From the NCBI GenBank assembly GCA_021792635.1, contig JAJYUH010000002.1, positions 234,313 to 298,312 on the forward strand: a stretch of 64,000 bases of DNA, written 5' to 3'. The notes under the pieces were generated by a model, which worked only from the letters and a program-made list of their open reading frames with translations, had not been told where the DNA came from and searched no databases. This document shows, one piece after another, positions 30,743-58,889 of the stretch (positions are counted from its first letter, which is position 1; the number at the start of each line of letters is the position of its first letter). This stretch comes from Natronospirales bacterium. Its GTDB lineage: Bacteria > Pseudomonadota > Gammaproteobacteria > Natronospirales > REEB76. Made by a program: the position numbers and the translations under genes.

Positions 30743-31672
30743 ATGGGTATTTGGAATGGCTGGGATATTTTTGTCGCAACCCTGAAAACCTTCAGCAAAT
30801 ATCCGGCCTTCAATGTGCCATTGCTGATTTGCTGGCTGGTATATGCCCCCACGGCGATTTATCTGAAATACTTTCTGCCCTATGGGGCTTTAAGTGGCTG
30901 GCAAATTGCCGGCATCATCGTCCTGGTTTTTGTCGGCTTCTCTCTGATCATCTCGCTGACATGCCTGCTCTTGCTGGAGTTCATCGAGCAGATTGAAACA
31001 ACGGGCCGGGTGCGGGTGGCGAGTGCCATCGGCCGCGTCATCTGGAACGATTTCCTGCCATCGGTGCCCGTTGCTGACATTTGGGCGGCCATCTGGCTGG
31101 GGCTGACGCTGATCGAAGTGGCGATCAGTAGCGTGACCCGAAACAGCGGCCGGAGACAGTCATTCTCAATGGAGGGCGCTGCCAAAACTCTGTCGGGCTA
31201 TCAGTTGGTTTCCCTGAGTGCCGCGTTCTTCGAGGCCCTGAATCGCGGCGTGCGCATGCTGGCATTCCTGATTTTCCCGGCCATCGCCTGGGAGCATGAC
31301 AACACCATCAAGGCCCTAAAGCGCGGCCTAAGCATCGCCGAAGCCCACAAAGGTGAACTGGGTGCCGGTGTCCTGTTGATCACGGCTGCCGCCGGACTTG
31401 TGTTCTTGCCACCCTTCATTCTGTTTTATGTCACGGACAAAACCCATACCACGCTTCCGGACAGCGTGTGGCTGGGCGTGATCATCTACTGCGGGTTTGC
31501 CTGGAGTTTCACCATACTGATGGAGCAACTATTTACAGCCACGCTGTATCGCTGGCACCTGGATTGGGAGCAGCGCTGCCGCGATGCCAGCCGCCATGGT
31601 CTGCTGGAACCCAGGCTGAACGAGGTGCCGTGCCCGGCCATCATGGATCATGCCGCCGAGTTTTTTCATTGA
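30743..31672 (+). CDS. Hypothetical polytopic membrane protein
   Basis: About six hydrophobic segments; purine-rich RBS-like sequence upstream. Confidence 0.78.
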   Translation: MGIWNGWDIFVATLKTFSKYPAFNVPLLICWLVYAPTAIYLKYFLPYGALSGWQIAGIIVLVFVGFSLIISLTCLLLLEFIEQIETTGRVRVASAIGRVIWNDFLPSVPVADIWAAIWLGLTLIEVAISSVTRNSGRRQSFSMEGAAKTLSGYQLVSLSAAFFEALNRGVRMLAFLIFPAIAWEHDNTIKALKRGLSIAEAHKGELGAGVLLITAAAGLVFLPPFILFYVTDKTHTTLPDSVWLGVIIYCGFAWSFTILMEQLFTATLYRWHLDWEQRCRDASRHGLLEPRLNEVPCPAIMDHAAEFFH

Positions 31673-31782
31673 ACGGTGCGGGATTTGACGGCGAAGTCCC
31701 GGTCGGATAATTACACATGATGAAAATTTCACTTGTAACTCGGGCTATTGCCTATACCAATAAGGGAACTATCATTCCTAAA

Positions 31783-31944
31783 ATGGGAACGAAGAAAAAA
31801 ACGGGTCTGGCAGCGGCGCTGTTTACCAAGACCCAGCGCCGGGTGCTCGGGTTGCTGTTCGGCAATCCGAACCGCAGCTACTATGCCAATGAAATCGTGC
31901 GCTTCGCCGGTGCCGGTATCGGGGCGGTGCAACGAAGCGTTTAA
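31783..31944 (+). pseudogene. N-terminal remnant of an HTH-nucleotidyltransferase (MNT-type) antitoxin
   Basis: LAAALFTKTQRRVLGLLFGNPNRSYYANEIVRFAGAGIGAVQR, cut at the S repeat. Confidence 0.78.
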
Positions 31945-32027
31945 GGGTCAGAGCCATTAAACGCATGGCAGTCGCACCGGAGTGATGCGACATAAGCACT
32001 GGATTCCGGCTCGACGGCCGGAATGAC
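31937..32027 (+). repeat. S-family repeat copy 1 (two hairpins)
   Basis: GCGTTTAA-12-TTAAACGC and ATTCCGGCTCGACGGCCGGAAT; colinear with 33456-33544. Confidence 0.85.
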
Positions 32028-32361
32028 GGAGCAGGGAAGCGCTCTGGGATCCTGAAATATCAGTATCCGCACTGATCACGGCTGACACCGTGGAAATCTC
32101 AAATACGAAACTCAAGTCGTCCATAAGCCATCGCTGCTCCCGGCATCTGACCGCCAGAGACGGTGGAAATGCAGATTGTGCAGGAGCAAAATCTGCCATG
32201 CCTCCCGCAGCATTTGTACTTCCCTGTACATCATCGCTGGGGTGAAATACACCGAGAAGTCCCACGTCTGGGATTTTCAAGGGTCGAGTTGCGCCGGGAT
32301 GTTCGAGAAACAGGAGCTGGTATAGTATTGCCACTGTGATTTGTACCTCGGGAGATGCCCC

Positions 32362-32568
32362 ATGGAATTCAAGATAGAACATGAGCAGGAAGCGGACGGA
32401 CGCTGGCTGGCTGAAGTACCGGAACTCCCAGGCGTGCTGGCGTACGGGAGCAGTCCCGATGAGGCCATGTCCAAAGCGGAAATTCTCGCGTTGCGAGTCT
32501 TGGCGGACCGGCTGGAACACGGCGAGAACGGCCCGCAATCGATACGGATTTCCGTCGCCGCGGCATGA
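32362..32568 (+). CDS. HicB-family antitoxin (short)
   Basis: EQEADGRWLAEVPELPGVLAYG. Confidence 0.88.
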   Translation: MEFKIEHEQEADGRWLAEVPELPGVLAYGSSPDEAMSKAEILALRVLADRLEHGENGPQSIRISVAAA

Positions 32569-32777
32569 GCCAGTGGCCGGCGATCAAGGCCAAGCGCCTA
32601 TTGGCTGCCTTGTTGCGTCTCGGGTGGCGAGTAAAACGGGAAACCGGATCTCACAAGGTGCTGACGCGGCCAGGCTGGCCGGACTTCGTGTTTGCCTTTC
32701 ACAACAGCGAAGAGATCGGCCCGCGCATGTTGGCGCGCATTGCCCGACATACGGGCCTTACACCAGATGACATTTAG
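32565..32777 (+). CDS. HicA-family toxin
   Basis: GWRVKRETGSHKVL; ATGA overlap with hicB. Confidence 0.88.
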   Translation: MSQWPAIKAKRLLAALLRLGWRVKRETGSHKVLTRPGWPDFVFAFHNSEEIGPRMLARIARHTGLTPDDI

Positions 32778-32789
32778 ATTCCGTAGAGC

Positions 32790-32865
32790 AAGGATCAAAC
32801 TCTACACATCACGGAATCGCTTCACAAACCATCTGCCGGCATCGGAGGTGCTTGTCCGGGGAATC
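32790..32865 (+). repeat. R-family repeat (partial) with start of the HsdM tail
   Basis: CACATCACGGAATCGCTTCACAAACCATCTGCCGGCA closely matches 34447 and 35053 copies. Confidence 0.75.
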
Positions 32866-32908
32866 TGCGCGCATTACGCGGCTACGCCCCGTACACCTGA
32901 ATAGTGGA

Positions 32909-33150
32909 CGATAGCGTCGCATCGCTCGTGATGGCCGGTACGGTCCCGGCGTCCCGGCCACTCGCTCCAGCGACGGCCCATTCCTTTGCTGCGGCACGCC
33001 CGGCGTTCGGAAACCGTTACTTCGCACGGTTTCCTCCACCCTGGCTTTACGCCCCGGCGCGGCCTTCGCACCACGCGGACGCTGTGCTACGGCCGCTGGG
33101 GCTACCGCAGGCTCTTCGCCTCGGCGCTTCGCGCCTTCCCTGGCTCATCG
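32909..33150. mobile_element. 242-bp non-autonomous hairpin-rich element, copy 1
   Basis: Identical to 57607-57848; ends CGATAGC...GCTCATCG; flanked by A and T. Confidence 0.9.
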
Positions 33151-33151
33151 T

Positions 33152-33261
33152 TGGACGGACAGGACTATTTCGCTACGGTACAGGCGGGGCTGGACAAGAA
33201 CTATGCCCCAATGGAGCAGCTATTCGCTGAGATTATCGAGCGGAGCCTTGCGTCGTCGTGA
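33152..33261 (+). pseudogene. C-terminal remnant of a Fic-family protein
   Basis: QDYFATVQAGLDKNYAPMEQLFAEIIERSL resembles Fic C-termini. Confidence 0.55.
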
Positions 33262-33423
33262 ATGGCTTTGTTGCTTCGCCTTCTTCCAGCATGCGCACGA
33301 TCGAGGCGATCGGGGCCCGGTCTCAATGGCGGTGGAGCTGGCAACGCTCGCAATCAGCGCCTTGCGGAATTTCTCCGGGTCGCGCAGATACGGGTTGGTC
33401 TCGACAAGTGGCCTTCTTTCCAT
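33220..33423 (-). CDS. Small protein, possible Fic antitoxin
   Basis: PLVETNPYLRDP...SVASSTAIETG (SxxxE-G-like inhibitory motif); TATAAT 7 nt before ATG. Confidence 0.6.
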   Translation of the reverse strand: MERRPLVETNPYLRDPEKFRKALIASVASSTAIETGPRSPRSCACWKKAKQQSHSRRRKAPLDNLSE

Positions 33424-33455
33424 GATGGGGATTATAGCAGGCCGCAGTGTTACAA

Positions 33456-33544
33456 CGTTTAAGGATCAGAGCTATTAAACGCCTGGCAGTCGCACCGGCG
33501 TGGCGGACATAAGGACTGGATTCCGGCTCGACGGCCGGAATAAC
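33456..33544 (+). repeat. S-family repeat copy 2
   Basis: Colinear with 31937-32027. Confidence 0.85.
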
Positions 33545-33726
33545 TCCTCCGGGGCAGACCACATTTTCCCGATTGACAGTATTAGTCTCCGTCGTTTCCC
33601 CGGCCTGAGCGAGTGGCGGGCCGCCCGCGCTTGCCTGGCGCGACCCGGCGTTGGAGCATGCGGGCGATTGCATCCTGGAACCAAACATTGCCCGGCACAT
33701 AATTGCAGTGGGTGGTGCGCTGGATG

Positions 33727-34014
33727 TTATGCAGCCCGCCGCACCCGCAGATCCACTCGCAGGCCGGCCAGGCTTGCCAGGTTCACCAGGGCATCCAGGC
33801 TGAATCTATCGATGCGGCCGCGCAGCAGGTCGTTGAGCCGCGGCTGGGTGATGCCCAGCTGTTCGGCTTTCTCGCCCTGGGTGCCGGTTTGATGTTGCAC
33901 GCGCTCCTGGAGTGCGATCATGATCTCCGCGCGCACCTTCATGTTGGCCGCCGCGCCTCGGGTCTTTTCCAGGGCATCCCACACGCTGTTGAATTTCTTT
34001 ACTGGCATATTCAT
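33727..34014 (-). CDS. XRE/HTH (HigA-like) antitoxin
   Basis: FNSVWDAL...LGITQPRLNDLLRGRIDRFSLDAL. Confidence 0.88.
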   Translation of the reverse strand: MNMPVKKFNSVWDALEKTRGAAANMKVRAEIMIALQERVQHQTGTQGEKAEQLGITQPRLNDLLRGRIDRFSLDALVNLASLAGLRVDLRVRRAA

Positions 34015-34336
34015 CTCCTCAATAATTCTGCTAATCGCCGTTTAGCAATTTCAATGTCTGTTTTAGTTGTACGCGGTGTCTTTTTCTTGAAGGCATGCAA
34101 TACATACACGGCGTCTTCGAGTTTGGCGATATAATATAGATGACCCGATAGGCGCCGCCTGCATCTCTGACGCGTATTTCCTGGACTCCAGTGCCTACGG
34201 TGGATAGCGGCTTGAAGTCGTCCGGCATCAGGCCGCGCTGAACCCTGTTCAGCTAAAAACCGGCCTGGTGGCGGGCTACATCCGGAAACGCCCGTAACTC
34301 GTCCAATGAGTTGCCCAGGAAGGCGATGGGTTTCAT
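34011..34336 (-). pseudogene. RelE/Gp49-like toxin with in-frame TAG and 5-nt duplication
   Basis: MKPIAFLGNSLDELRAFP...AGF, TAG at 34253-34255, extra TATAT near 34130, then YVLHAFKKKT. Confidence 0.85.
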
Positions 34337-34446
34337 GTCGGCAAGTATATCAAAAATGATATAAATATCCAGTTGCCAATGCGCAGGGCCGGTTTCGCAC
34401 AAGGCATAGAGCACTCAGCCGTGTGCGCAGGAACTCGCACCCCATG

Positions 34447-34594
34447 GCACTGGGAAGTCGGGTCAGACTCGACAAATCACGGTATCGCTTCACAAACAAT
34501 CTGCCGGCACCAGGCGTGATTGCCCGGAAATCGTTGCCGGCCTGGAAGCGGCGCTGGAACCGTTCCGCGAGCTTGCGAATGATCTCGACGGCGG
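34447..34594 (+). repeat. R-family repeat, full copy (non-coding head plus HsdM C-terminal remnant)
   Basis: Colinear with 35053-35203; tail LPAPGVIAR/IVAGLEAALEPFRELANDL with one frameshift. Confidence 0.85.
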
Positions 34595-34786
34595 CGCCGC
34601 CAACCCACAGCCTGAATGAGTCCCAATGGGCAGGAGCGGCAATGCACACCGCGGCTGCGAGCGCAGACACTGCTTTGGTGCCACCCGACGTTTGGATATG
34701 CCGGTCCCATACGGTTTGAACAACAGATGGGATTAGCTTAGGGTGGTGCCTAAAAACCGGCGGCAGTCGAATCGGCAGAATATGCC

Positions 34787-35047
34787 ATGAAAAAACTCAG
34801 GCACGAGACCGAACTGGTCCATGAAGCGATCCTGGCGGGAGTGAAATACGCCGAGAAACGCGGTGCCGCCATCTTCGAGCCCACGGATTCCGCCGCCGAC
34901 AAGATTCTTTATATTTACCGTTTATTGGTTCACGACAAGATTATCCAGCCACTGCCGGAGGACCAGGTCTCGCAACAGTCCATGCGCCACAAGCTGGCCA
35001 TCTGGTATAGCAAGCAACTCCCAAAAGACCATCCCTTGTTGAATTAA
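34787..35047 (+). CDS. DUF5062-like protein
   Basis: MKKL.HE.ELV...YAEKRG...YIYRLLVHDK...HKLAIW. Confidence 0.75.
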   Translation: MKKLRHETELVHEAILAGVKYAEKRGAAIFEPTDSAADKILYIYRLLVHDKIIQPLPEDQVSQQSMRHKLAIWYSKQLPKDHPLLN

Positions 35048-35052
35048 GGCCA

Positions 35053-35203
35053 GCACTTTGGGAAGTCGGGTCAGACTCGACACATCACGGAATCGCTCCA
35101 CATACCACCTGCCGGAACCGGGCGTGATTGCCCGGGAAATCGTGACCGGCCTGGAAGCGGTACTGGAGCAGTTCCGCGAGCCTGCGAATGATCTCGGCGG
35201 CGG
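35053..35203 (+). repeat. R-family repeat, full copy
   Basis: Tail LPEPGVIAREIVTGLEAVLEQFREPANDL. Confidence 0.85.
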
Positions 35204-35392
35204 GTGCGGATGGTGGTTGGGATAGGGCGGGCGCGGATACACCGGCGGCGGATGCGTCTGCAACTCCTGCAGCAGCACCTCCACCGCTTTTTCCAGCTGC
35301 GGATCGTGGCCTTCGCGCACCAGCTTGGGATCCTGCCAGACTTTGATGTCCGGGGCGATGCCGTGGTTCTCCACTTCCCAGTGGCCGTGCAG
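35196..35392 (-). pseudogene. C-terminal remnant of tricorn (S41) protease, copy 1
   Basis: HWEVENHGIAPDIKVWQDPKLVREGHDPQLEKAV...PPYPNHH. Confidence 0.75.
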
Positions 35393-35411
35393 TCTGCAGA
35401 TGGCCCAGCGC

Positions 35412-35440
35412 TTGACCGATGAGAGGTGTCACCTTACACT
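35412..35440 (+). promoter_or_regulatory. higBA promoter with palindromic operator
   Basis: TTGACC-17-TACACT enclosing AGGTG-T-CACCT; ATG 6 nt downstream. Confidence 0.65.
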
Positions 35441-35446
35441 ACCCAC

Positions 35447-35725
35447 ATGATCCGTAGCTTCCGGCATAAGGGACTGAAGCGACTCTACCGGAACGATGAC
35501 GGGTCGAGGGTCCAATCCGCGCACGTCGAACGGCTGAAGGACATCCTCGTGCGCCTGGACGCGGCGACCAAGGCTCAGGACATGAATCTGCCGGGTCTCA
35601 GGTTGCATCCGCTCAAGGGCAAACGGAAAGGGATCTGGGCAGTGTCCGTCGACGCGAATACTCGCGTGACGTTCGGATTCGATGGTGAGGATGTGGTGGA
35701 CGCAGACTACGAGGACTATCACTAG
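35447..35725 (+). CDS. HigB-family toxin
   Basis: MIRSFRHKGLKRLY...LHPLKG...DYEDYH. Confidence 0.92.
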   Translation: MIRSFRHKGLKRLYRNDDGSRVQSAHVERLKDILVRLDAATKAQDMNLPGLRLHPLKGKRKGIWAVSVDANTRVTFGFDGEDVVDADYEDYH

Positions 35726-35776
35726 TCCCTGTCCGGTTGGCAGGAGTGGAGCGCATATGTGTATTGGAGGTGTGTC

Positions 35777-36073
35777 ATGGCCATGAAGAACCCGCCGCAT
35801 CCTGGTGGAGTGATCCGGCGTCTGTGTATCGAGCCCTTGGGTTTGACCGTGCGGGAAGTCGCCGACGGACTCGGGGTATCCCGGAAGCAGCTGTCGGATC
35901 TGCTGAACGGGCATGCGAGCATTTCGCTCGAAATGGCATACCGGCTATCTGTCGCATTCGGCGGGTCGCCGGAGTCCTGGATGCGCCAGCAGCTCAATTA
36001 TGATTTGGCGCACGGTGACCGGGAAATCCTCCCGCGGATCGAAGAAGAGGTCGAGAGGCTCAAAGTGGCGTAA
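35777..36073 (+). CDS. HigA-family antitoxin
   Basis: MKNPPHPG...[14 protein letters not shown]...SPESW. Confidence 0.92.
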
Positions 36074-36130
36074 GAATGCACCCCCCGCTTGTGGGCGCCA
36101 AGAACCTTAAGGCGCAAATCGGATGCGTCT

Positions 36131-36161
36131 AAAAAAGGCCGCTCTTTAAGAGCGGCCTTTT
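36131..36161. terminator. Bidirectional intrinsic terminator
   Basis: AAAAGGCCGCTCT-TTA-AGAGCGGCCTTTT. Confidence 0.8.
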
Positions 36162-36181
36162 GATTTACCGGCATTGCGACG

Positions 36182-36352
36182 TCAATGGATCGGCGGCAAG
36201 TACGGATGGTGGTTGGGATACGGCGGGCGCGGGAACACCGGCGCAGGATGCGTTTTCAGTTCCCGCATCAGCACCTGCACGGTTTTTCCCAGTTGCGGAT
36301 CGTGACCTTCGTGCGTGAGCTTCGGGTCCTGCCACACCTGGATGTTGGGCGC
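36182..36352 (-). pseudogene. C-terminal remnant of tricorn protease, copy 2
   Basis: APNIQVWQDPKLTHEGHDPQLGKTV...PPYPNHHPYLPPIH-stop. Confidence 0.75.
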
Positions 36353-36370
36353 GAGTAGTCGGGACGCCGG

Positions 36371-36457
36371 CCTGCCTGTGCGTCGCACGCAGACAGGTAG
36401 CGCGCAAGCAGGCACGCAGACAGGGATCATACCGGCCGCCTGCCTGCCGCAGGCAGG
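36371..36457. repeat. Cluster of short CCTG...CAGG palindromes
   Basis: CCTGCCTGTGCGTCGCACGCAGACAGG, half copy GCACGCAGACAGG, CCTGCCTGCCGCAGGCAGG. Confidence 0.7.
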
Positions 36458-36483
36458 TCACGGGCGACGCGACGCAATCGATC

Positions 36484-36603
36484 TATCACGGCAATGTGTG
36501 GAACGCGGCGGAACCAATGCGCTCATTGGGGCTGAGCGAGCCGACGGTGAGGCGCTATCTGGATTTGCTGACCGGCCTTTTTATGGTGCGACAGCTTCAG
36601 CCG
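36484..36603 (+). pseudogene. Internal remnant of an AAA+/DUF4143-type ATPase
   Basis: YHGNVWNAAE...LGLSEPTVRRYLDLLTGLFMVRQLQP. Confidence 0.68.
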
Positions 36604-55893: not shown

Positions 55894-56739
55894 TTAACGG
55901 GCTGCGGCGCGGGCACTGCGCCAGGCCGTGATGAGGGCCGCGAGCGGCCGCAATTCTACCGGCGCACCGCCGGGTTTGTAATCAGGACGGGTAATTTTTT
56001 TCAGGCGCGCCTCCGCCAGGCCGTTCAGTATCCAGCCGCTGCAGAGCATGTCGCATTCCGCCGTTATGTCAGCCTTGGCCGTATCCCGCAGCGTGCGCGC
56101 ACGCTGCGCATAATCGGCCAACAGCTTCTTGAGTCCGGTATCGGTGTGGGCATCACCGACGATATGCCGGTCCACCCCGTGTTTGCGCAAGTCATCGGCG
56201 GCGAAATACACCCGGCCGTGTTCGGCGTAAACCGCACCCTGCGTGACGATATCCGCCAACTGCCAGGCGGCGCCCAAGCGGCGCGCCGCAGCCAGAGTGG
56301 TTTGTTGTTGTGCGCCCCGGAGCAGCGCCGCGAGTTCCACCAGGGTGCCGCCGCGGCACTGGCAGTAGTGTTCCACGTCCGCGAAATGCGGAAACGGCGG
56401 CGCGGCGATATCCGCGCGCACGCTCTCGATGATGCCCAGAAATGGCTGGACCGGCAGCCCCCGTTTTTTGCTGGCCGCCAACAGGTTCAGGGATAGGGGA
56501 TGGCGCGGCTTGTGCTCCCCGAGCAGGCCGATTTCTTCCCGCCACCAGGCGAGTTTGGCCTGGGCTACGCCTGCATCGCTGCATTCACGCAGGATTTCGC
56601 GGATTTCCACATAGATGGCGAACAACGCCGTAAGCGCCTCACGCTGCCCGCGCGGCGTGAACAGCACGGCAAAACGCAGGTCTGCGGGCGCGGCGGCAAG
56701 CTTGCGCCGCGCCTGCTCGGCGTCATGTTCCGGAGTCAT
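55894..56739 (-). CDS. Squalene/phytoene synthase-fold protein with degenerate active site
   Basis: AQAKLAWWREEI, HP, GRVYF; Asp-rich motifs absent. Confidence 0.75.
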   Translation of the reverse strand: MTPEHDAEQARRKLAAAPADLRFAVLFTPRGQREALTALFAIYVEIREILRECSDAGVAQAKLAWWREEIGLLGEHKPRHPLSLNLLAASKKRGLPVQPFLGIIESVRADIAAPPFPHFADVEHYCQCRGGTLVELAALLRGAQQQTTLAAARRLGAAWQLADIVTQGAVYAEHGRVYFAADDLRKHGVDRHIVGDAHTDTGLKKLLADYAQRARTLRDTAKADITAECDMLCSGWILNGLAEARLKKITRPDYKPGGAPVELRPLAALITAWRSARAAAR

Positions 56740-58206
56740 CCGGGCTGTCGTCGCCGGCGCTGCGCGGCGTCACGTCCAGCTGCTCCAGTTCCGGTAACGG
56801 CTTTTTTTCCCGTATGCCCATCTCCGGGAAGCGCCGCGCGCTGGGCAACACCTGATGTTCCCAGGAACCCAATGCCTTGTTGTAGTGTTCCACGCTTTGC
56901 CCGAGGGCGCGACCGATACGGCCCAGGTGTTCATTGAAGGTGGCGATACGTTTGAAGAGTTCCTCGCCCAGTTCGCGGATCTGTTCCGCATTTTCCGCCA
57001 CCGCCTGTTGACGCCAGCCGAATGCCACCGCGCGCAACAGAGCGATCAGGCTGGTGGGCGTGGCGAGTACCACCTTGTTAGTAAAGGCGTCTTCCATGAG
57101 TTTGGGATCTTCGTCCAGAGCCGCGCTCAGAAACTGTTCTCCGGGTACGAACATCACCACGAAATCCGGGGAATCCCGGTACTGAGTCCAGTAAGCCTTG
57201 CTGGCCAGTTCACGCATGCGCTCGCGTACCTTGCGCGCATGTTGCTGCAGGAACTGGCGGCGTTCCTCCTCGGTCCTGGCGCCGACCGCGCTCAAGTAGG
57301 CATCGAGCGGCGTCTTGGCGTCCACCACCAGTTCGCGCTTGTCCGGCATGCGCACGACCATGTCCGGGCGCAGCCGGCCGCTATCCGTATCCCGGCTGTC
57401 CTGCTCGGTGAAATCGCAGTATCTCACCATGCCGGCCAGTTCGGCGAGGCGCCGCAACGTCATCTCACCCCATTGGCCGCGCACTTCCGGCCGACGCAAC
57501 GCCTGCACCAGGTTGCGCGTTTCCGCCTGCAACTGGGCCTGGGTCTCATGCATGTCGGTGAGATAGCGGGTGATATTGCCGTAGGCTTCCTTGCGTTCCT
57601 TTTCCACGATAGCGTCGCATCGCTCGTGATGGCCGGTACGGTCCCGGCGTCCCGGCCACTCGCTCCAGCGACGGCCCATTCCTTTGCTGCGGCACGCCCG
57701 GCGTTCGGAAACCGTTACTTCGCACGGTTTCCTCCACCCTGGCTTTACGCCCCGGCGCGGCCTTCGCACCACGCGGACGCTGTGCTACGGCCGCTGGGGC
57801 TACCGCAGGCTCTTCGCCTCGGCGCTTCGCGCCTTCCCTGGCTCATCGTCTGATGGATTTGTTCCTCGGTTTTCTTCAAGGTTTCGCCGATGGGTTTCAC
57901 CAGGTCCGCGAAGGCCTTTTCCTTTTTTTCCAGTTCGCCTTGGGCCGCCACCTGGAATTTACCCAGGTTCTGGGTCGCGAGCTCCAGAAAGGACTGGTTA
58001 TTGTTCCTCAGCACATCGCCCGCCAGGGCCTTGAAGGTCTTTTCCAGTTCCTCACGGGTAGTGTTCACGGCCTCGGCTTTGGCCCTGAGCGTGGCCAGCT
58101 CGATTCCCAGTTCACTGATATGTCGGCGCTCACGCATCACGGCGACTGCGTAGCCGGCAATGAGTCCGATCACCAGGGCGACAACTGTGAATACGATGGT
58201 CATCAT
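56723..58206 (-). pseudogene. rmuC: DNA recombination protein RmuC interrupted by the 242-bp element
   Basis: RGQWGE, RPD, VDAK, FVPGE motifs; removing 57607-57848 gives one 413-aa ORF (EQIHQ-M-EKER). Confidence 0.92.
57607..57848. mobile_element. 242-bp element, copy 2 (inside rmuC)
   Basis: Identical to 32909-33150; flanked by A and T; no target duplication. Confidence 0.92.
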
Positions 58207-58889
58207 CCAGTCTCTCGCACGGCGGCGGTTGCATGGGCATGATGGTCCAGCCACGCCAGCAGGTCGGTGGGCTTTTCCAGCAGACCGTCCGCCTGCCAGT
58301 CAGCCGGCCGTTCGCCGGCATCAATATAACCATACAGGGCCACAAGCGTCTGCATGCCGGCGGCGCGACCTGCTTCCACATCACGCTGCGCGTCACCCAC
58401 ATAGATACTGTCGGCCGGGCTGCAGCCGGTAAGTTTGCAGGCGTGCAGCAACTGGTCCGGATGCGGTTTGCGGCGTGGCGTAGTGTCACCGCTGACCACG
58501 CAGACAGCGCGTTGGGCGAGATGGAATATCCTGAGCAGCGGTTCCGTCAATGCCCCCGGCTTGTTGGTGACAACGCCCCAGCGCAGGGTGCGCCGCTCCA
58601 GTTCCTGCAGCACCGTTTCGATTCCCGGGAAAAAGCGCGTTTCACAACTGAGACAACCGCCATAAATGGCAAGCAGACGTGCGCGCATGCCGGCATAGCG
58701 TGAATCATTCTGCTCGATGCCGAAACCCAGTTTCAGCAATGCCGGCGAGCCATGGGAGACCACCGGCCGGATCACTTCCTGCGGCAATGGCGGCAGGTTG
58801 TGTTCGGCGCGCTGGGTGTTGAGCGCCGTGCCCAGGTCAGGCGCCGTATCCAGCAGTGTGCCGTCGAGATCAAAAAGCACCAATTGCAT
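58203..58889 (-). CDS. gph: Phosphoglycolate phosphatase (HAD)
   Basis: FDLDGTLLD, VTNK, KPHP, VGD. Confidence 0.88.
   Translation of the reverse strand: MQLVLFDLDGTLLDTAPDLGTALNTQRAEHNLPPLPQEVIRPVVSHGSPALLKLGFGIEQNDSRYAGMRARLLAIYGGCLSCETRFFPGIETVLQELERRTLRWGVVTNKPGALTEPLLRIFHLAQRAVCVVSGDTTPRRKPHPDQLLHACKLTGCSPADSIYVGDAQRDVEAGRAAGMQTLVALYGYIDAGERPADWQADGLLEKPTDLLAWLDHHAHATAAVRETG

Follow-up and report, generated by a model that had tools for sequence, protein, structure and literature searches.

The genome of an uncultured Natronospirales bacterium contains a 242-nt element that is mobile, recently active and non-autonomous and that has no credible open reading frame (ORF). The element inserts exactly, without duplication and without loss of target, its fold is kept through compensatory base changes, and its sites obey a target rule in which a single base is recognised at a distance from the point of insertion. 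By the tests made here, this spaced single-base rule is a new and unexplained feature that fits no described transposon family. The element itself belongs to no described family by the same tests; judged by analogy, it appears to work most like a miniature of the IS200/IS605 type.

The source genome (G000) comes from a mine-drainage lineage and comprises 2.71 Mb in 30 contigs, with a completeness of 94%. The window, which is the whole 64-kb stretch of DNA that was analysed, corresponds to positions 234313-298312 of its contig C19. An original prediction for this DNA, read from the letters by eye, stated that positions 32908-33151 equal 57606-57849 over 244 nt with unrelated flanks, and took the outer A and T to be target bases. 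Alignment gives 100% identity over these 244 nt, with a spacing of 24,698 nt and unrelated flanks. The outer A and T do belong to the flanks, since the eight copies found outside the window have just the inner 242 nt in common with the window pair. The mobile unit is the inner 242 nt, CGATAGCG...GGCTCATCG (32909-33150 and 57607-57848). The copies in the window are as follows:

32909-33150, plus strand: element copy 1, 100% identical to copy 2
57607-57848, plus strand: element copy 2, inside rmuC and antisense to the gene
36356-36480, minus strand: degenerate partial copy with the 5' hairpin domain only (coordinates by eye)

Two identical copies had been predicted. Their identity stands, while the number does not: a search of the genome gave ten full copies, each with no more than one base changed relative to the first window copy (four identical, five with A13G and one with G191A), together with additional decayed or split copies. 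Ten copies so nearly identical also bear out the view that the element is recently active. The family is the top repeat family of the assembly with 11 members, the runner-up having 6, and the contig depth of the element in the probable source run is 8,343 against roughly 800-1,000 for the flanks (~10x). Two of the copies form a tandem pair on contig 13, separated by an 18-nt spacer. Copy 1 lies at the extreme start of a small ORF, amid unannotatable small ORFs and repeats, and the ORFs neighbouring it match no Pfam family. In the degenerate copy at 36356-36480, which was compared with fragments on contigs C29 and C27, small hairpins of the CCTGCCTGC..GCAGGCAGG type are nested. The ends of the element match only as CGAT-AGC/GCT-C-ATCG, the short imperfect inverted repeat already described in the original prediction, and there is no real terminal inverted repeat. 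A search of positions 32700-33400 against Rfam in E-value mode returned nothing on the element; the sole match was a chance snoRNA hit outside it.

The exactness of the insertion can be seen in the genes that the element interrupts. Excision in silico of exactly 242 nt reopens long frames in at least five sites. The rmuC gene is the clearest of these for the window, where it is found in two parts:

56726-57604, minus strand: part of rmuC downstream of the insertion, 293 codons; Pfam RmuC with an E-value of 9e-95, covering profile positions 26-290 of 291
57850-58299, minus strand: part of rmuC upstream of the insertion, 150 codons, no Pfam domain

Removal of the 242 nt was predicted to restore the rmuC frame, and it does so: the result is an open frame of 444 codons, in which the split codon is made of 57605-57606 and 57849, and the Pfam match confirms the identity of the gene. 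In the interrupted MFS transporter gene the Pfam Sugar_tr profile continues from position 90 to 91 over the break, and further interrupted genes encode a TPR protein and an MscS-type channel. Relative to the gene, the element runs antisense in rmuC and the MscS-type gene and sense in the genes of the MFS transporter and the TPR protein. The occurrence of both orientations within genes excludes RNA splicing, and so the element is not an intron; a self-splicing group I or group II intron was considered and rejected on the antisense copies in rmuC and the MscS-type gene and on the lack of an Rfam match. As a side observation, the element breaks assemblies and inactivates genes (those of RmuC, the transporter and the channel).

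Empty sites lead to the same description of the insertion. The sister genome G016, 83-97% identical near the sites, is empty at all four loci tested, and there the flanks are contiguous exactly over the 242 nt with no base duplicated and none missing. For rmuC the empty site is likewise found in G020, G015, G012 and G019, that is, in five relatives with G016. A 16,225-nt DNA contig from another study, ~99% identical, skips exactly 57607-57848, and so does a contig from an RNA library; among the contigs of the source run no empty allele was seen. No target duplication was found at any of the ten copies or at any of the four orthologous empty sites, so that the absence of duplication claimed from the window holds at these four sites and at the empty allele of the other study. 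A MITE of the DDE type was rejected on these grounds (no duplication at ten copies or four empty sites, no real terminal repeat). The flank table together with the empty sites led us to reject three further ideas: microhomology between ends and flanks, a core of 2 nt such as CG, and a concealed duplication of 3 nt.

Relatives of the element at 72-93% identity were found by BLAST in 10 of the 20 other genomes of the genus. In a neighbouring genus one of five genomes has a relative, and in a further genus only a 26-nt trace was seen. Pattern scans added at least 21 stretches in species-representative genomes, titled Gammaproteobacteria or Proteobacteria MAGs, and at least 32 stretches in metagenomes. 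Numerous matches lie at contig ends, as is expected of a recent repeat. Distant blastn searches of plasmid and phage collections gave no match, and a scan of viral contigs gave one, an ordinary copy at the same site as locus L099. The subfamilies are distinguished by their central hairpin and by their terminal bases (…CTCATCG versus …CTCGTCA). Truncated copies exist for both ends, with no systematic 5' truncation and no 3' tail.

Comparison of the flanks resulted in a target rule that the window pair could not reveal. The original prediction had placed the insertion between A and T, as in Helitrons, had held that the flanks share no short target and had expected further copies to show A^T and no duplication. 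A^T flanks are present in two of the ten copies of the genome, the two window copies alone, and over 34 distinct sites A stands at -1 in 11 and T at +1 in 9, which is the level of chance. The eight further copies accordingly agree with the expected lack of duplication and not with A^T. The flanks do have a short target in common, namely G at +4 with A or C at +5, a pattern that is invisible from two copies. At the window copies it reads:

33151-33155, plus strand: target signature TTGGA on the right flank of copy 1; G at +4 is position 33154 and the +5 base is A
57849-57853, plus strand: target signature TCTGA on the right flank of copy 2; G at +4 is position 57852 and the +5 base is A

On the right flank G occupies +4 in 32 of the 34 distinct full copies. 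Addition of partial copies that retain the 3' end raises the sample to 65 distinct right flanks, with G at +4 in 58. Nine of these sites were set aside as non-canonical, being old copies or variants that seemingly carry an extra 3' module; three of the nine have common sequence beyond the supposed end of the element. For the canonical-end sites the count is 54/56, and for the two main subfamilies 25/25 and 28/28 (53/53). The two exceptions, both with T at +4 (L038/L158), represent one old, probably orthologous site whose end is uncertain. Eight of the 56 sites are from unpublished genomes (L024, L028, L037, L047 and L147-L150) and all have G at +4; when they are omitted the count is 46/48. Unpublished genomes (G001, G006, G008, G010 and G017) also enter the tallies for the genus, and the split copies reported below for G008 come from one of them.

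The +5 base in the 56 canonical-end sites is A in 31, C in 16, T in 8 and G in one, and there are milder preferences for T or G at +3 and for A or T at +2. The left flank of the 34 distinct full copies is uninformative, as are the positions that adjoin either end. Written for the minus strand, the rule is 5'-(T/G)C(A/C)(A/T)N^ followed by the element 5'-CGATGAG, and none of the positions -1 to -3 on that strand is conserved. The invariant G at +4 is already present in empty sites and is thus part of the target; TCTGA is retained in the empty rmuC sites of the five relatives. As for a guide-target match across the subfamilies, the four bases next to the 3' hairpin are almost invariant.

The second conserved feature of the element is its fold. 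A consensus structure from 20 non-redundant members has 49 pairs in 10 helices, with 95.7% of cells paired. Covariation had been proposed in the original prediction as a check, and the alignment shows it: 14 pairs are changed on both sides, where shuffles give 4.9 ± 1.1 (0/500 reach 14) and slid controls give 1-5. With RNA parameters, both strands fold better than their shuffles, at z-scores of -2.8 (plus strand) and -3.1 (minus strand). In the first window copy the fold is arranged in three parts:

32916-32975 (element positions 8-67), plus strand: 5' hairpin domain, helices 1-4, the most conserved part, loop included
32988-33111, plus strand: central multi-branch domain, helices 5-8, with 7 pairs changed on both sides
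33123-33135, plus strand: 3' hairpin GGCGC-TTC-GCGCC, helix 10, with one pair at which 8 sequences carry changes on both sides

Within the family there is hardly any variation in the first 67 nt, and the 5' domain is also found as truncated solo copies. The central domain is closed by a long-range helix, GCTGCGG/CCGCAGG (element positions 80-86 with 197-203), and its inner hairpins differ by subfamily with compensatory changes. The hairpins and the four CTTCGC motifs named in the original prediction are all present, the motifs being at positions 112, 156, 206 and 219 of the element. CTTCGC appears 2-4 times per copy on the plus strand in all 20 members, and its complement GCGAAG is absent from that strand in 19 of the 20. 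Mononucleotide shuffles of the first window copy contain 0.19 CTTCGC on average, and none of 2,000 reaches the observed four. Read on the minus strand, the 3' hairpin becomes a GCGAAGC mini-hairpin motif located 15 nt from the 5' end of that strand. GCGNAGC is reported to be an extraordinarily stable DNA mini-hairpin (PMC13037366). The plus-strand loops are three-base TTC loops and not the C(UUCG)G RNA tetraloop. The CTTCGC/GCGAAG motif thereby marks one strand and suits DNA better than RNA. Counts of G-T wobbles and A-C mismatches do not discriminate which strand folds, and one conserved G-T/U pair of the plus strand (18/20) corresponds to a C-A mismatch on the minus strand.

The element also serves as a target for other mobile DNA. 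One otherwise complete copy is interrupted at position 66-68, which is the foot of the 5' hairpin domain, by a 1.39-kb IS1111-like element (DEDD_Tnp_IS110 and Transposase_20 domains) that has its own subterminal inverted repeats. Another copy, divided between contig 10 and contig 1, carries a second IS1111-like element near position 130, and similarly split copies occur in G008. The third case, in a relative, is a copy cut short near position 62-77 with an IS1111-like end directly beside it. The 242-nt element has thus served as the target of two or three IS1111-like elements, which means that it is not a deletion derivative of such an IS.

Which enzyme could mobilise the element was approached through the gene content of the genome. 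Matches to Y1_Tnp fall in five loci, two IS200-like and three RAYT-like, one locus being a 99% duplicate; next to an IS5-like insertion lies a sixth Y1 fragment, which is a pseudogene. The inverted repeats that flank the three RAYT-like genes are unrelated to the element. The flanks of the four distinct Y1 places of this genome gave no significant match to the element by blastn, and those of seven Y1 loci in relatives gave none by nhmmer. Contig 15 carries an IS200-like element from which four miniatures of ~170 nt derive, all starting with TTTAT; trans-mobilisation by a Y1 enzyme does therefore happen in this genome, and the shared TTTAT start is canonical behaviour that contrasts with the 242-nt element. 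Y1 genes are found in 9 of the 11 element-bearing genomes and in 5 of the 10 without the element, a loose association that is confounded by kinship. Genes of the IS110 family number four to six in this genome, and there is one reverse transcriptase of a group II intron (RVT_1 and GIIM). TnpB is absent from it, and so is the Resolvase domain of serine recombinases, for which the same search was positive in 12 of 14 control genomes. The Y2 profile PF04986 has no match in this genome and none in the 14 control genomes, so that this result is uninformative. The topA gene is present once per genome in 21/21 genomes of the genus, including the ten without the element, with no extra paralogue; in the source genome it lies at C16:87009-88292.

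A gene-bearing parent of the element was also sought. Scans of sequence collections by the end sequences yielded no gene-bearing element with the same ends among the matches listed, and no inverted pair of the 5' module around a gene occurs in 21 genomes. The copy pairs at L073 and L091 were rejected as parents because they merely flank or interrupt ordinary genes (a glycosyltransferase and a large protein), and the copy that encloses a gene was rejected as an autonomous parent because its content is the independent IS1111-like element. Assembled contigs, which cannot show rare forms, contain no head-to-tail circle junction, and their sole end-to-start joint is the tandem pair with the 18-nt spacer.

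Exact insertion without homology, duplication or loss, combined with a one-sided rule, is what would be expected of cutting and joining a single strand. We propose that the element is mobilised in trans and moves as a folded single strand by an HUH/Y1 transposase of the IS200/IS605-RAYT kind, a reading that we rank first and consider quite possible though short of probable. The minus strand 5'-CGATGAGCC...GCTATCG-3', with its GCGAAG loops, would be the transposing folded strand and would be pasted into a single-stranded target directly after 5'-(T/G)C-N-N-N. The enzyme would cut and rejoin one strand through a 5'-phosphotyrosine link, and replication would then fill in the second strand, with the result that nothing is duplicated or lost. 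A folded single-stranded intermediate had already been suggested in the original prediction; the strand-specific GCGAAG agrees with it, and the intermediate itself, like the active strand and the enzyme class, is what we infer. That interpretation is partly supported: it described the kind of element correctly, as recent, non-autonomous, seamless and probably single-stranded, and gave the wrong target rule.

Three independent hints that the minus strand is the working strand come from the mini-hairpin motif, from the target rule lying 5' of its 5' end and from its placement on the G-rich strand. By the usual reading the G-rich strand is the lagging-strand template. The minus strand lies on it in 13 of 18 places in the source genome (7 of the 10 intact copies) and, at other loci with |GC skew| >= 0.02, in 9 of 14, or 9 of 17 without the cut-off; the total of 22/32 is a modest bias, taken over copies that are partly non-independent. 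In the family the minus strand always ends in …CTATCG, while it begins with either CGATGAG or TGACGAG; this pattern would follow if the right-end cut site alone were part of the element.

Several properties are common to the element and to IS200/IS605 elements and PATEs, which depend on Y1 HUH TnpA. As in those systems, insertion is seamless, with no duplication or loss. Likeness to IS200/IS605 extends to asymmetric ends with a hairpin near each on one strand and no terminal inverted repeat, to a conserved target that is one-sided and lies 5' of one end on one strand, to the proposed mobilisation in trans and perhaps to some orientation bias relative to replication. In IS608, the top strand leaves as a circle and is inserted 3' of TTAC with no gain or loss; on the active strand the conserved target precedes the left end on its 5' side, and the cuts fall 19 nt upstream of one subterminal hairpin and 10 nt downstream of the other (PMC3201880). 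In the minus strand of the element the corresponding distances are 15 nt, from the 5' end to the hairpin near it, and 6-7 nt, from the other hairpin to the 3' end. The differences are equally clear. Unlike in IS200/IS605, where the tetra- or pentanucleotide target adjoins the insertion point, three free bases separate the target base from it; no TnpA gene with these ends was found among the Y1 loci compared, and the whole 242 nt is structurally constrained.

The REP/BIME/REPIN sequences and their RAYTs provide the other close comparison. The element has GC-rich hairpin modules like theirs, RAYT-like genes are present in the genome and, by eye, GTAG adjoins the helices on the proposed active strand as in REPs. 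IS110-family elements insert into REPs, as they do into the element. In contrast to REPs, which are short, extragenic and usually highly repeated, the element is 242 nt long with defined ends and a composite fold, its copies lie inside coding genes (RmuC, the MFS transporter, the MscS-type channel and the TPR protein), and the RAYT-like genes are flanked by other repeats. For TnpA-REP, as little as a dinucleotide is described as sufficient to choose the cleavage site (PMC8266576).

Some observations do count against a Y1 enzyme. The recognised bases adjoin the cut in the characterised Y1 systems compared here, and C-N-N-N^ is without precedent among these. A fold over the whole length, including a long-range helix, is more than the known need of HUH enzymes and would suit RNA, and the conserved G-T/U pair of the plus strand becomes a C-A mismatch on the proposed active strand. 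To this can be added the lack of a gene-bearing element with these ends among the matches listed, the weak replication-strand bias and the loose co-occurrence with Y1 genes.

Another option, which is bolder and which we regard as unlikely, is that host topoisomerase I (type IA) nicks a single-stranded target at C-N-N-N^, holds the ends and reseals the insertion. Joining could take place by strand transfer to the enzyme-linked 5' phosphate or by synthesis primed from the nick, and the folded mini-hairpin strand would be the form accepted as a foreign strand. Bacterial and archaeal topoisomerase I and reverse gyrase prefer a cytosine four bases 5' of the scissile phosphate; G at -4 prevents the cutting of an oligonucleotide and T allows it only weakly, the selectivity being set by a pocket four bases away, with R169 in E. 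coli numbering (PMC3467081). The minus strand has C at exactly this distance from the break, at -4, in 54 of the 56 canonical-end sites and in all 53 of the main subfamilies, and the polarity agrees, with the 3'-OH on the C-N-N-N side and the enzyme on the 5' phosphate. One topA gene exists in each of the 21 genomes, and a host enzyme would account for the absent cognate transposase. What is matched here is, however, the preference of an enzyme and not a family of mobile elements. C at -4 is found at only one of the four junction cuts and the element termini carry A or G there, so that another activity must free the element. Since topA is equally present in the ten genomes without the element, it is not the limiting factor. 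A ruler-like HUH enzyme could yield an identical logo, and the part of the literature that was searched contains no transposable element dependent on a type IA topoisomerase, which is not proof of absence. Spread by target-primed reverse transcription, with the element as an RNA gene whose plus-strand RNA is copied from its 3' end onto a nicked target, for instance by the group II enzyme, would explain the conserved fold over the whole length with its long-range closing helix and 14 compensatory pairs, the conserved G-U pair of the plus strand and two sharply defined ends. The reverse transcriptase (RVT_1 and GIIM) is in the genome, and an RNA-library contig over the first 67 nt has a high depth, although this is known from contigs only and DNA carry-over is possible. 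We nevertheless find this improbable: the element has no Rfam match, no 3' tail and no systematic 5' truncation, and its TTC loops are not the stable RNA tetraloop, C(UUCG)G, while their complement is a stable DNA motif. Moreover, group II mobility needs base pairing between intron and target, which the variable flanks cannot supply.

Families that insert without duplication have to be weighed as well. IS110/IS1111 elements do so and have no long terminal repeats, and with four to six such genes in the source genome and one of them enclosed by a copy, the element could be imagined as a miniature derivative moved by the recombinase of that family. This is very improbable, as the enclosed gene belongs to the 1.39-kb IS that has its own subterminal repeats and sits inside an otherwise complete copy. 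IS110-family insertion is sequence-specific, and the 65 different flanks have essentially one base in common. Least credible of all is the rolling-circle reading, in which the element would resemble Helitrons or IS91 and enter between A and T. The absence of duplication, the asymmetric ends, the presumed single-strand mechanism and the hairpin near one end are all in its favour, along with A^T at both window copies. Against it, the A^T flanks are limited to those two of the ten copies and stand at 11/34 and 9/34 for the single sides, and no GTTC/CTTG target adjoins the element. Helitrons have the termini TC...CTRR, unlike the CG...CG or CG...CA ends seen here; the lack of a Y2 match in the genome is uninformative, as that search was positive in no control genome. 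IS607 was rejected too: its insertions have GG at the junction, a rule not followed here, and the 94% complete genome has no Resolvase domain. A literature search for an element such as this one found none in the material covered, which again is not proof of absence.

To our knowledge, seamless transposition in bacteria is known for few mechanisms (HUH single-strand, rolling-circle, IS110-type and serine-type), and a target rule is part of the definition of each. Behind the rule found for this element stands either an HUH enzyme that measures its cut in a new way or a host topoisomerase that leaves its mark on the site, and either outcome would widen what is known of single-strand DNA transposition. 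If the topoisomerase reading is true, this would be the first mobile element to borrow a type IA topoisomerase in order to open and reseal its target, and the invariant C at -4, the seamless join and the missing cognate transposase would all be explained. The element is at the same time a landing pad for IS1111-like elements. With ten near-identical copies, datable insertions in genes, empty sister alleles and covarying subfamilies, it offers a clean natural system for the study of such transposition.

IS1111-like elements, which carry the DEDD_Tnp_IS110 and Transposase_20 domains and have subterminal repeats of the TATGGAC/TCCCC type, apparently insert by preference into the 242-nt gene-less element. 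They were located in or beside three of its copies, two in the Natronospirales genome (G000; C, contig) and one among the stretches from other genomes or metagenomes that carry relatives of the element (L):

G000:C19:66284-67678, outside the window; IS1111-like insertion at element position 66-68
G000:C10:1-335 and C1:1-262; insertion near element position 130 of a split copy
L044:1502-1800; IS1111-like end adjoining a relative's copy, which is truncated near position 62-77

Several copies of the 242-nt element also hold a hairpin-forming insert of 26-27 nt, of the GGACGACCC..GTCCCAGACGT type, that is found in both orientations and at differing positions and looks like a tiny separate unit, mobile or copied:

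L091:3799-4083, L093, L095 and L098; insert at columns 145-171 of the alignment of element copies (A1)
L030; insert inverted and at a different position in the element
G000, C10 and C1; insert in the element copies on these contigs

The decayed or truncated copies consist chiefly of the 5' hairpin domain. Short palindromes of the CCTGCCTGC..GCAGGCAGG and CTGTCTGCGTGC types are enclosed in them, and GCAGGCAGG is counted 97 times in the genome.

Window 36356-36480, minus strand; decayed or truncated copy
G000:C29:34545-34706; decayed or truncated copy
G000:C27:94814-94919 and 244466-244711; decayed or truncated copies

Tandem copies exist as well; at G000:C13:147199-147700 two identical copies lie in the same orientation with a spacing of 18 nt, and a contig from a second sample has the same arrangement.

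The rmuC codon that is broken by copy 2 (window 57605-57606 together with 57849) is ATG (Met), whereas the empty site reads ATA, ATC or ATT (Ile) in all five relatives that lack the insertion, so the base at -2 is unlike that of every empty site. Either ordinary sequence divergence accounts for this difference, or it was left behind by the insertion event.

An RNA-library contig of sequencing run X4, which carries another subfamily of the element, has a depth of 448 on the first 67 nt (equivalent to window 57607-57673) against 6-30 in the flanks, with zero coverage over the remainder of the element; these depths come from contigs only and carry neither the strand nor the true RNA level.

Copy 1 lies within a run of small ORFs (window about 31900-36500) interspersed with the repeat families D3, D5, D7 and D8. 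No Pfam family was found in the 10 of these ORFs that were tested, apart from one weak DUF6159 match. The D5 repeats share GGGTCAGACTCGA with the inverted repeats around a RAYT-like Y1 gene on the same contig:

Window 32783-32862, 34451-34530 and 35059-35138; D5 repeats, 80 nt
G000:C19:362440-362470 and 363200-363235; inverted repeats flanking the RAYT-like gene

Another RAYT-like gene, with different inverted flanks, is duplicated on contig 18 as a 765-nt unit (99% identical). A large Y1-type gene is interrupted by one copy of an IS5-like DDE element, several copies of which break the assembly:

G000:C3:653-1557, C8:10722-11627, C10:56523-56914 and the ends of C1, C27 and C4; IS5-like copies
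G000:C20:6-230, C8:10536-10724 and C1:18957-19046; fragments of the Y1-type gene

A second hairpin-rich repeat family, of ~270 nt and likewise with GCGAAGC motifs, has one copy that directly adjoins the right end of an IS200-like element. Four derivatives of the latter, ~170 nt each, keep both parental ends:

G000:C15:31020-31300 and C13:63974-64206; ~270-nt repeats, 85% identical, with fragments elsewhere
G000:C15:about 31294-31841; IS200-like element encoding a 143-aa Y1 transposase
G000:C13:124352-124523, C27:102142-102318, C7:67155-67324 and C27:122321-122486; miniatures

All four miniatures start with TTTAT; such behaviour is canonical for IS200/IS605 elements, and the genome that shows it also holds the 242-nt element.
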